Sequence record: PP434429
Source: Escherichia phage LH01
Strand: one strand, 5' to 3'
Length of the DNA: 64,000 bases
The position numbers and the translations under genes are program-made. The notes under the pieces were generated by a model that was not told the origin of the DNA, did no database searches, and saw only the letters and a program-made list of their open reading frames with translations. This document shows, piece by piece, positions 41,243-46,381 of the stretch (the first letter of the stretch is position 1; every line of letters starts with the position of its first letter).

Positions 41243-41863
41243 TTACTTACGAGTTTTTGCATACTGAGCAGCGTCAGCAGCCAAACGACCTGCTTGTCGA
41301 AGTTTTTCTTTAATCTCATCATGAAGTGGTTGAGTATACTTCAAACCTTCGATAGTCAAATAAAGACGATAAAGGTCTGGGGTATCAAGGTTGTTGATAT
41401 GTTGGCCATTACGAAGACTATTGAATTCACGAACGAGTGAAGATGTATCAGATTCAATATCACGAACAAGCGAAGATAGTTGTTTATATTTTTTTTCCAG
41501 GCTAGAAGTATCAAACTTAAGAGCAGGAGCTTTAGGAGTTGCTTTTACTTCAGGCTTAGGCTCAGGTTTTGCTTTAGGGGTAGCAGGTTTAGGAATGGTA
41601 GGAGCAGGTTTTACTTTAGGCGAACCAGATTTAGCAGAAACACCACCACTAACAATATCTTTGAATGCTTTAGAAGCTCTGTAATATTCTTTTTGGCTGG
41701 AAGTGTCGATACCGTACATGGCTTGAACGTTTTTGAAAAACTCTGTACTAGTTTTTGTACCAGAAATAGCATCGTAAGCAGCTTGCCATTTCTCTTTTGT
41801 CATACGTACACCGGCTTCGGTGATTACTTCCGTTTCGGCTAAAAATTCATTAAAAGTATACAT
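41243..41863 (-). CDS. Internal-protein-like (IPIII-like size; N-terminus MYTFNEFLAETEV; Pro/Lys-rich linker)
   Basis: 206 aa; capsid-targeting-sequence-like N-terminus; central PKVKPAPTIPKPATPKAKPEPKPEVKATPKAP low-complexity segment. Confidence 0.55.
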   Translation of the reverse strand: MYTFNEFLAETEVITEAGVRMTKEKWQAAYDAISGTKTSTEFFKNVQAMYGIDTSSQKEYYRASKAFKDIVSGGVSAKSGSPKVKPAPTIPKPATPKAKPEPKPEVKATPKAPALKFDTSSLEKKYKQLSSLVRDIESDTSSLVREFNSLRNGQHINNLDTPDLYRLYLTIEGLKYTQPLHDEIKEKLRQAGRLAADAAQYAKTRK

Positions 41864-41939: not shown

Positions 41940-42238
41940 TACCTTGTCGGGGTTTCCACCTACTAGGTAAGTGTTTGTACGAAACGCCGGGATTCGAACC
42001 CGGTTATTAAGCAGTTGACGCTACTCAATATTTTTAAAAGGCCATATCTCTACCATATCCGAACGTCCCGTCAAAAACGCTACTCGGCTTATGGCAAAGA
42101 TATTTCCTCGAATCGATAATTCTGTGCGCCGTTTCTGCTGTGATGTAAGGGGATATTAACGAATCATAAAGATTTATTAAGACCAGTCCTTACTCAGGGA
42201 ACATCAGTCCGACGACTTGCCGGTAGCGACCCGGCTTC
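41940..42238 (-). ncRNA. Candidate stable RNA region with a tRNA-like T-arm (possible equivalent of T4 stable RNAs C/D, or a degenerate tRNA)
   Basis: No ORF of 60 aa or more; contains a canonical T-arm CCGGG-UUCGAAU-CCCGG with a 7-bp acceptor-like pairing (CGGGACG/CGUUUCG) about 91 nt apart, but no clean cloverleaf could be drawn by hand. Confidence 0.3.
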
Positions 42239-42583
42239 TTATTTTGGCATATCATCAATTTGCTCTCGACGCCTACGCCATAGATTAATCGCTTCATAAA
42301 CACATTCAGCATTTGGTATATGGCGACAATAGTATAGTGATTCGCGTTTCTGGAACCGATGTTGCAATGGGATTTCGTTTAAAAGGTCTTTACGGTCAAA
42401 GTATTCAAAACTAGTTAACCCGGAACGGTTTTTAAGAAACTTCCAATGGCCAAATTCATTTTGGAAATAAACGTAATCAGCGTGTTGATATAATGAATTA
42501 ATCAACCGGTCGGAAATAACTGTATCCTGTTCGTTAAAATAAAACGTTAAATCATGAACTACCAGATAAATATTACCTTTCAT
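42239..42583 (-). CDS. Hypothetical protein between the small-RNA region and the tRNAs
   Basis: Start moved to MKGNIYLVVHDL (GAGGAAAA SD); the ORF-track start at 42631 would overlap tRNA-Arg. Confidence 0.45.
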   Translation of the reverse strand: MKGNIYLVVHDLTFYFNEQDTVISDRLINSLYQHADYVYFQNEFGHWKFLKNRSGLTSFEYFDRKDLLNEIPLQHRFQKRESLYYCRHIPNAECVYEAINLWRRRREQIDDMPK

Positions 42584-45646: not shown

Positions 45647-46381
45647 TTACCTTAAGATTGTTTCAATTTTAGAATAAAGCTCTTCTAAAGAGCCGTCGTT
45701 TGTAATAACTAAATCGCCTTCTTCAATAGGCAACCCAGCTTCTGTAATATGTTTATCGGTGGATTCCGTACTAGAGCGAACCACATGAATAACTGTAGCA
45801 CCCATCGCTCTAGCGGTTTCCATTTCATGGACTTGGCGTGTATCGGTTACAACATAGTAATCGAAATCACTTCCAATATAATCCATATAATTTAATGCAA
45901 AAAGTTTAACCCAATACATACGGTCAAATAAATTAACGACAACATCCGTACCGAGGGCTTGCATAAGACGGCGGATTGACCATGTGTCGTTGATATTATT
46001 TATAGCTTCACGCAGGGCTTCATATGGTTTAATATCTAGATATGAATATCCACCTTCTAACGATGATAATACTTTAACATTATTAATTGGTAAATATCGA
46101 CTTTGTAAATAAATTAGCGCTTCTTCCATTAATTCAATAACATCCAACTTATTGAGATTTAATGGTGTTTCACGGTCATATCCAACACCTTCAAAGTATT
46201 CATATTTCAACTCGGTGAATACATCAGGGTTTTCGGCATGTTTACGACCCCAGGCTATTGCTAGAGCGTCTTTAATTGGATATGCTAATTGGTATTTTAC
46301 GGATTTAAAGTTTGAATTGATGTAATCAGCAGTAGTGTCTTTACCGCTACGTTTGATGCCACTTAAAAAGATTAGCTCCAT
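45647..46381 (-). CDS. 1: Deoxynucleoside monophosphate kinase gp1
   Basis: 244 aa; MELIFLSGIKRSGKDTTADYI P-loop N-terminus matches T4 gp1. Confidence 0.9.
   Translation of the reverse strand: MELIFLSGIKRSGKDTTADYINSNFKSVKYQLAYPIKDALAIAWGRKHAENPDVFTELKYEYFEGVGYDRETPLNLNKLDVIELMEEALIYLQSRYLPINNVKVLSSLEGGYSYLDIKPYEALREAINNINDTWSIRRLMQALGTDVVVNLFDRMYWVKLFALNYMDYIGSDFDYYVVTDTRQVHEMETARAMGATVIHVVRSSTESTDKHITEAGLPIEEGDLVITNDGSLEELYSKIETILR

Follow-up and report, generated by a model that had tools for sequence, protein, structure and literature searches.

Predicted orthologs of the T4 stable RNAs C and D in Escherichia phage LH01 and the tRNA-like fold of rnaC

The stable RNAs C and D of bacteriophage T4 have been known since the 1970s. 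Here we describe their counterparts in a stretch of 64,000 nucleotides (nt) of Escherichia phage LH01 (record PP434429), which is referred to below as the window. Judged by comparison with related phages, a region of this window around positions 41940-42238 very probably encodes, on the minus strand, orthologs of T4 rnaD (species 2 RNA; 42242-42123) and rnaC (species 1 RNA; 42116-41978), because sequence, position and fold all agree. The LH01 element is thus of an already known kind, namely the species 1 and 2 RNAs of T4, here in a phage closely related to it. A first-pass annotation of the DNA had described a region free of open reading frames (ORFs) and had offered two readings of it, an equivalent of the RNAs C and D of T4 or a transfer RNA (tRNA) with a long variable arm or in a degenerate state. 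The absence of ORFs was borne out, as no ORF of more than 40 amino acids (aa) overlaps 41940-42238 on either strand, and the alignment with T4 together with the annotation of phage RB68 argues for the former reading.

Homology of the LH01 region to T4 rnaD and rnaC

A query of 341 nt covering the ORF-free stretch was compared with phage records and matched 806 of them, 679 at a coverage of at least 80% and an identity of 84-99%. Among the matches listed, all those at full length (at least 80% coverage) came from T4-type phages, with the exception of a single oddly named record. The annotation of RB68 beneath the match reads 'rnaC' and 'rnaD'. In the T4 record NC_000866, rnaD (71053-71171) and rnaC (70908-71046) are located directly after tRNA-Arg. 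A three-way alignment of LH01, T4 and RB68 was collinear across both genes and into the terminator. The oddly named record is that of Pseudomonas phage PsgM02F (OR584013.1, host Pseudomonas coronafaciens), which contains the full rnaD-rnaC stretch at 84.7% identity in the manner of a T4-type coliphage; the host given for it is unexpected.

With the T4 boundaries applied, the rnaD homolog of LH01 comprises 120 nt (42242-42123, minus strand), with the RB68 annotation at the same aligned place, and the rnaC homolog comprises 139 nt (42116-41978, minus strand). They are separated by a spacer of 6 nt (42122-42117, minus strand), which reads GAAUUA in LH01 and RB68 and AAAUUA in T4. The context in which AAUUA is followed by UCG also occurs after the CCA end of tRNA-Trp in phage PG7, and the LH01 spacer resembles those of tRNA arrays. 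The identity between LH01 and T4 was 96.8% over 157 nt for rnaC and 84.6% over 130 nt for rnaD. The covariance model R1 of rnaC scored the LH01 sequence with 156.6 bits (E=1.9e-41) and the T4 sequence with 158.8 bits.

The rnaC of LH01 shares with that of T4 the length of 139 nt, the distance of 6 nt from rnaD, the position before a trailer hairpin and terminator, and the range of R1 scores; as in T4, it closes the tRNA-cluster transcription unit, with the terminator immediately downstream. A small number of substitutions set it apart from T4 rnaC (42067, for instance, is G instead of A, and 42092 is A instead of G), as does its upstream context, which in LH01 consists of only two tRNA genes and an ORF between tRNA-Arg and rnaD. 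The two rnaD genes have in common the 5' hairpin, the long-range helix and the 3' segment GAAACGGCGCAC, the 6-nt length of the spacer to rnaC, the end motifs and nearly the same size (120 nt in LH01 and 119 nt in T4). However, T4 rnaD starts 2 nt after tRNA-Arg, whereas LH01 rnaD starts at the stop codon of the inserted ORF. Since the annotated rnaD of RB68 has the same upstream ORF, direct adjacency to tRNA-Arg is a trait of the T4 layout and not of rnaD.

Structure of rnaC and rnaD

The folding of the region exceeds chance. For the whole region, the minimum free energy (MFE) had a z-score of -6.15, and none of 100 shuffled sequences folded as well. The rnaC part, with an MFE of -53.6 kcal/mol, reached z = -5.43 (0 of 200 shuffles as good), and the rnaD part z = -2.75 (2 of 200 shuffles as good). 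The structure of rnaC was analyzed in 21 distinct sequences from at least 10 genera, namely those of T4, RB68, PG7 and VPA32 (Karamvirus), Melville (Gelderlandvirus), LC53 (Winklervirus), F48 and Marfa (Marfavirus), Kosakonia phage 305 (Kanagawavirus), NM4.3 and KM16 (Moonvirus), VR7 (Gaprivervirus) and several IMG/VR contigs. The length of the homologs varied little, between 138 and 142 nt. The RNAalifold consensus contained 41 pairs, all of which form in LH01 rnaC, and 25 of these have changed on both sides. Standard pairs occupied 96.7% of the cells of the alignment behind this consensus, as compared to 38-51% when the partners were slid by 1-3 columns, and the observed values were reached by none of 500 shuffles. 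The set of 21 distinct sequences gave the same result: with the loop-loop helix described below included, 28 of the 46 modelled pairs had changed on both sides, and pairing across the family was 96-97%. Taken together, these data define rnaC as a tRNA-like four-way junction supported by covariation.

The junction is closed by an acceptor-like stem of seven positions, in which CGAUUCG (42115-42109) faces CGUUUCG (41986-41980) on the minus strand. It consists of five Watson-Crick pairs and two adjacent U·U mismatches (42112-42111 with 41983-41982). Pair 3 of this stem is A-U in 8 and G-C in 13 of the distinct sequences, whereas the mismatches are invariant in all 21. The tandem U·U has the appearance of a specific recognition site. 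Instead of a D arm, rnaC has a long arm of about 70 nt (42108-42039, minus strand), the sequence of which is almost wholly different between the T4 type and the Gelderlandvirus and Marfavirus types (Melville and F48) while its pairing is preserved. The three pairs of helix 2 in this arm are invariant, whereas helices 3-5 have changed on both sides at 16 of their 17 pairs. An A-rich linker of 9-11 nt leads from the long arm to a second hairpin (42030-42005, minus strand) with a stem of 10 base pairs (bp) and the 6-nt loop CGUCAA; in its stem, helix 7, nine of the ten pairs have changed on both sides. The T arm, CCGGG-UUCGAAU-CCCGG, was already recognized in the first-pass annotation and is present at 42003-41987 on the minus strand, directly followed by the acceptor 3' strand CGUUUCG. 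Its middle pair is G-C in 8, U-A in 11, A-U in 1 and U-G in 1 of the distinct sequences. In the Winklervirus type (LC53, locus L017, 526-665; locus L265, 5960-6099), the T loop reads UGCAUCC or UGCAUGC instead of UUCGAAU, and the remaining fold as well as both complementary loops are preserved.

The Marfavirus-type copies (loci L016, L030, L034 and L210) encode U followed by CCA directly 3' of the acceptor strand, whereas all others encode U followed by ACA. As read from the sequences, the CCA encoded in Marfavirus would fit a tRNA-like 3' end of rnaC.

The loop UUGACG (42074-42069, minus strand) at the tip of the long arm and the loop of the second hairpin, CGUCAA (42020-42015, minus strand), are exact complements and candidate partners in a kissing contact. 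Both loops are invariant in all types but that of Marfavirus, whereas the stems beneath them vary freely. In the Marfavirus lineage they have changed together, to UUGGCG and CGCCAA, so that an A-U pair is replaced by G-C. All six pairs of this loop-loop helix (helix 6) are standard in 21 of 21 sequences. By simple counting, perfect complementarity over 6 nt between two of three hairpin loops is expected by chance in about 0.3% of cases. The pairing is pseudoknotted with respect to the five helices supported by covariation, which indicates a tertiary or an intermolecular kissing contact. We consider such a contact between UUGACG and CGUCAA likely, be it within or between molecules.

The structure of rnaD was assessed in an alignment of 10 distinct sequences. 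At its 5' end is the GC-rich hairpin GCCGG-GUCGCUA-CCGGC (42235-42219, minus strand), which had been noticed in the first-pass annotation and consists of a 5-bp stem and the 7-nt loop GUCGCUA. The outermost pair of this stem is A-U in 8 of the 10 sequences, whereas LH01 and the sequence nearest to it have G-C, a change on both sides of the stem. A long-range helix connects positions 27-33 with the 3' end and is invariant; one further pair in rnaD covaries. For the central hairpin, the relatives have three versions that are unrelated to one another. The 3' end reads CACCA in T4, CACCG in RB68 and CACAG in LH01, in which no CCA is encoded. Two possible contacts between rnaD and rnaC that were considered by eye were set aside: the rnaD loop GUCGCUA and UAGCG of rnaC both lie in paired regions, and a pairing of GAAACG in rnaD with the rnaC 3' strand CGUUUC is without covariation.

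Distribution and genomic setting

Analysis of the distribution showed that rnaC and rnaD are independent modules and not a single unit, as each is present or absent independently of the other. This is illustrated by rnaC genes within tRNA arrays, with spacers of 5-8 nt, namely between tRNA-Trp and tRNA-Gly in PG7, VPA32 and Melville, and between tRNA-Phe and tRNA-Trp in LC53. LH01 rnaD had no match in the loci of PG7, Melville and LC53, a search that did not extend to VPA32 or to complete genomes. The converse is seen in the Dhakavirus phages JS98 (locus L005, 1499-1700) and VR5 (locus L018, 405-577), in which rnaD is followed by the trailer and terminator and rnaC is precisely absent; model R1 accordingly detected no rnaC in JS98 and VR5. 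By BLAST, rnaD was found only in phages of the Tequatrovirus, Mosigvirus and Dhakavirus types.

Pattern searches extended the collection of rnaC loci. In viral contigs, a strict 3' pattern returned 9 loci, a loose pattern combining a 5' motif and the T loop returned 59, and a pattern built on the two loops returned at least 120. Of the loci found with the loose pattern, 55 were new and were searched with R1, and 4 new ones scored; from the two-loop pattern, 77 were searched, of which 2 were real. A match in L070 with 16.5 bits was discarded, as the search pattern itself forces most of this score. In bacterial and archaeal genomes, R1 gave no score for any of the 80 pattern loci to which it was applied, out of at least 120, and the region had no BLAST match in 5,426 complete E. 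coli genomes. In most GenBank records of T4-like phages, rnaC and rnaD are either not annotated or lie under coding sequences for a 'hypothetical protein' (for example L016, 616-753, and L196, 242-415).

The LH01 stretch is T4-like coliphage DNA. Over a piece of 951 nt around the region, the identity was 99.7% with Escherichia phage CEV1 and 95-98% with phages of the JS09/HX01 type. All genes of the neighbourhood are on the minus strand, in the order tRNA-Met, tRNA-Arg, an ORF of 114 aa, rnaD, rnaC, the terminator, the motif TATAAATA and the next gene, which starts with ATG at 41863. The genes for tRNA-Met (42756-42682, minus strand) and tRNA-Arg (42678-42602, minus strand) were identified by ARAGORN and Rfam, and they are the only two tRNA genes found by ARAGORN in the window. 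The RNA region is located downstream of both, and not just before them as had been stated, with the 114-aa ORF (42583-42239, minus strand; phrog_3355, function unknown) lying between tRNA-Arg and rnaD. The TAA stop codon of this ORF (42241-42239) overlaps the first bases of rnaD. The ORF is present in RB68 and D5505 and absent from T4. In T4 and ZCEC15, a homing endonuclease gene is situated on the other side of tRNA-Arg.

Downstream of rnaC, the sequence and the alignment reveal a trailer hairpin (41973-41957, minus strand), which precedes the terminator. One of its pairs is A-U in LH01 and G-C in T4, and the hairpin is retained in JS98 and VR5, both of which are without rnaC. The strong terminator announced in the first-pass annotation is indeed present, as an intrinsic terminator with a GC stem followed by U6 (41936-41908, minus strand); it was missed by a simple scanner because of an internal UU/UU mismatch. 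One base past its U run begins TATAAATA (41906-41899, minus strand), which we take to match the T4 late-promoter consensus. This motif, a feature of the context outside both RNAs, precedes the start codon of the following gene (ATG 41863) by 36 nt. No match to the late-promoter consensus was found between the RNAs and position 45997, and a scan for sigma-70 promoters returned no more sites than expected by chance. The only terminator-like site of the scan was on the plus strand, where the complement of the rnaD 5' hairpin is followed by a T-rich run (42219-42245). It could stop antisense transcription or be a coincidence.

Alternative explanations and possible function of the two RNAs

That the region is an unusual but decoding tRNA gene, with a long variable arm, an intron or a degenerate structure, is very unlikely in our view, although it contains a canonical T arm and a 7-bp pairing with a span of 91 nt. 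The tRNA searches called for by this idea were run with ARAGORN and with Rfam at gathering and E-value thresholds, and they called no tRNA, transfer-messenger RNA (tmRNA) or member of another family in 41940-42242. No Rfam signal in the region exceeded 17.5 bits or was better than E=0.69. The best signal from the tRNA clan was a weak match to tRNA-Sec (15.2 bits, E=7.4; 42071-41979), as compared to a threshold of 29 bits for the Rfam tRNA model RF00005. The pairing on which the idea was founded, CGGGACG (42070-42064) with CGUUUCG (41986-41980), does exist in LH01 with the span of 91 nt, but it is not the one conserved in evolution. As a candidate acceptor it was rejected: over the 21 sequences it was paired to 83%, without a compensatory change, and scored below the shuffle mean. 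At three positions it was broken in 5-12 of the sequences, and the types in which it is disrupted are those of Gelderlandvirus, Kanagawavirus and Marfavirus. Instead, CGGGACG lies in the tip of the long arm and pairs there within a helix that is 100% paired and in which 5 of 5 pairs covary. The conserved hairpin loop moreover has 6 nt and not the 7 nt of an anticodon loop, and a D arm is absent. A further argument for a decoding tRNA might be seen in PG7 (locus L003), where both GenBank and ARAGORN call a 95-nt 'tRNA-Met' (1551-1645) inside the rnaC homolog (1506-1644). This is probably a false call, because it relies on the non-conserved pairing and its 'anticodon' CAU is due to a lineage-specific GAGAUAUGG-to-GAGGCAUGG difference. 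In KKP_3262, a 'tRNA-Phe' is listed under a similar match.

Two other explanations dispense with a stable RNA. The region might act only in cis, as a structured 3' untranslated region or terminator zone of the upstream ORF or as the leader of the downstream late gene, in keeping with its position between a stop codon and a terminator, with the presumed late-promoter consensus that comes after it and with the terminator-like antisense of the rnaD 5' hairpin. We regard this as highly improbable: the upstream ORF is absent from T4, in which rnaD comes directly after tRNA-Arg, and rnaC occurs in pure tRNA arrays without a nearby ORF. The constraint implied by a length of 138-142 nt and by double-sided changes in 28 of 46 pairs is also far above that needed by a terminator zone, and northern data for T4 show discrete stable RNAs (PMC9697503). 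Least probable of all, to the point of being almost negligible, is that the region encodes one or several small proteins. Many records list hypothetical proteins under the match, and the long arm of the Melville type holds an open frame of 21 codons. However, the window contains no ORF above 40 aa that overlaps the region, the T4 and Melville types do not share the small frames, and the substitutions are paired and compensatory rather than codon-like.

Orthology to T4 rnaC and rnaD is thus the reading that we retain, and within it the term 'tRNA-like' is fair for rnaC, which keeps the acceptor and T-arm unit and occupies the slot of a tRNA in several genera. With canonical tRNA (RF00005) it shares the T loop UUCGAAU, the 5-bp T stem followed by an acceptor helix of seven positions, the four-way junction, the placement in tRNA arrays with tRNA-like spacers and, in the Marfavirus copies, an encoded UCCA. 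It differs from canonical tRNA in the arm of about 70 nt that replaces the D arm, the A-rich linker of 9-11 nt, a 10-bp hairpin with a 6-nt loop in place of the anticodon arm, a variable loop that is essentially missing and the two invariant U·U mismatches in the acceptor, and it escapes detection by ARAGORN and Rfam.

Mimicry of the acceptor and T arm by RNAs that do not decode, presumably for the benefit of tRNA enzymes, is known from tmRNA, the bacterial Y-RNA-like YrlA and the tRNA-like structures of plant viruses. The LH01 region belongs neither to the tmRNAs nor to the Y-RNA-like RNAs: ARAGORN made no tmRNA call in the window, and no Rfam family of tmRNA matched at gathering or E-value thresholds. 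The only YrlA signal (16.2 bits) coincides with the true tRNAs, outside the region. Unlike tmRNA and YrlA, rnaC has neither a reading frame nor a Ro-binding stem and ends at the acceptor. A second group of relevance comprises ROOL and GOLLD, large phage-associated noncoding RNAs near tRNA genes that have been reported to multimerise through loop-loop contacts. Like these, rnaC is phage-borne, adjoins tRNA genes, is of unknown function and has conserved complementary loops; it is, however, much smaller (139 nt) and matches them neither in sequence nor by model. No Rfam family matched rnaC or rnaD.

Information on the expression of the two RNAs comes from T4. A transcript from a middle promoter spans the whole tRNA cluster, ends after the species I gene and is the precursor of the tRNAs and of the species I and II RNAs (PMC2330249). 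In T4-infected cells, rnaC has been shown to accumulate as a discrete stable RNA of about 140 nt, and rnaD has been reported to do so at about 120 nt. RNAC and RNAD were classed as late RNAs, with a northern-blot validation that employed an RNAC probe (PMC9697503), and their roles are unknown (PMC3014915). In a T4-like phage adapting to the semi-permissive strain ECOR34, the same single-nucleotide polymorphism arose in rnaD in all three lines (PMC12685909). This is the sole functional hint in the literature, and it concerns rnaD.

For LH01, we propose that the tRNA-processing machinery of the host would release rnaC by way of its stacked acceptor and T-arm unit. RNase P would cut at the 5' end of rnaC, and the 3' end would be trimmed as in a tRNA; the 3' end of rnaD would result from this same cut and from subsequent trimming as far as the long-range helix. 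RNase III cleaves species 1 RNA in vitro, which would fit the long double-stranded arm. As rnaC is without an anticodon loop, it cannot decode. By analogy, rnaC may be a non-decoding, loop-locked tRNA mimic that occupies or titrates a factor that binds tRNA, be it a host nuclease directed at tRNAs or an enzyme of tRNA processing. This role is our best guess but a tentative and rather unlikely one. The module rnaD might have a separate, host-specific role. The combined proposal is still more speculative, and we hold it to be unlikely: rnaC would be a mimic locked in shape, its loops would either close a ring or join copies head to tail into dimers or multimers, the particle would act as a decoy or sponge that captures a tRNA-directed factor of the host, such as a nuclease of a defence system, and rnaD would act in a host-specific manner, at which the convergent rnaD mutation on ECOR34 hints.

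A number of observations weigh against parts of this picture. The end coordinates of rnaD and rnaC in LH01 were carried over from those annotated in T4. Support for the kissing contact consists of one covariation event, confined to a single lineage, and the long-range helix of rnaD never varies, so that covariation is neutral on it. The degenerate T loop of the Winklervirus type implies that a canonical T loop is not strictly required. Deletions of the T4 tRNA region are viable on laboratory strains, which means that any role of these RNAs would be conditional. The decoy function of rnaC, finally, is suggested by analogy only.

The finding in LH01 itself matters little, as it concerns known RNAs in a close relative. 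The rnaC covariance model could be of use in correcting the annotation of T4-like phages, in which these genes are unannotated, listed as 'hypothetical protein' or mistaken for a tRNA-Met. The tRNA-like junction, the tandem U·U, the loop complementarity with its one double change and the modular distribution offer experimental handles on a long-standing orphan RNA. If true, the reading of rnaC as a shape-locked decoy and of rnaD as a host-specific module would assign roles to two RNAs that have been without any for fifty years.

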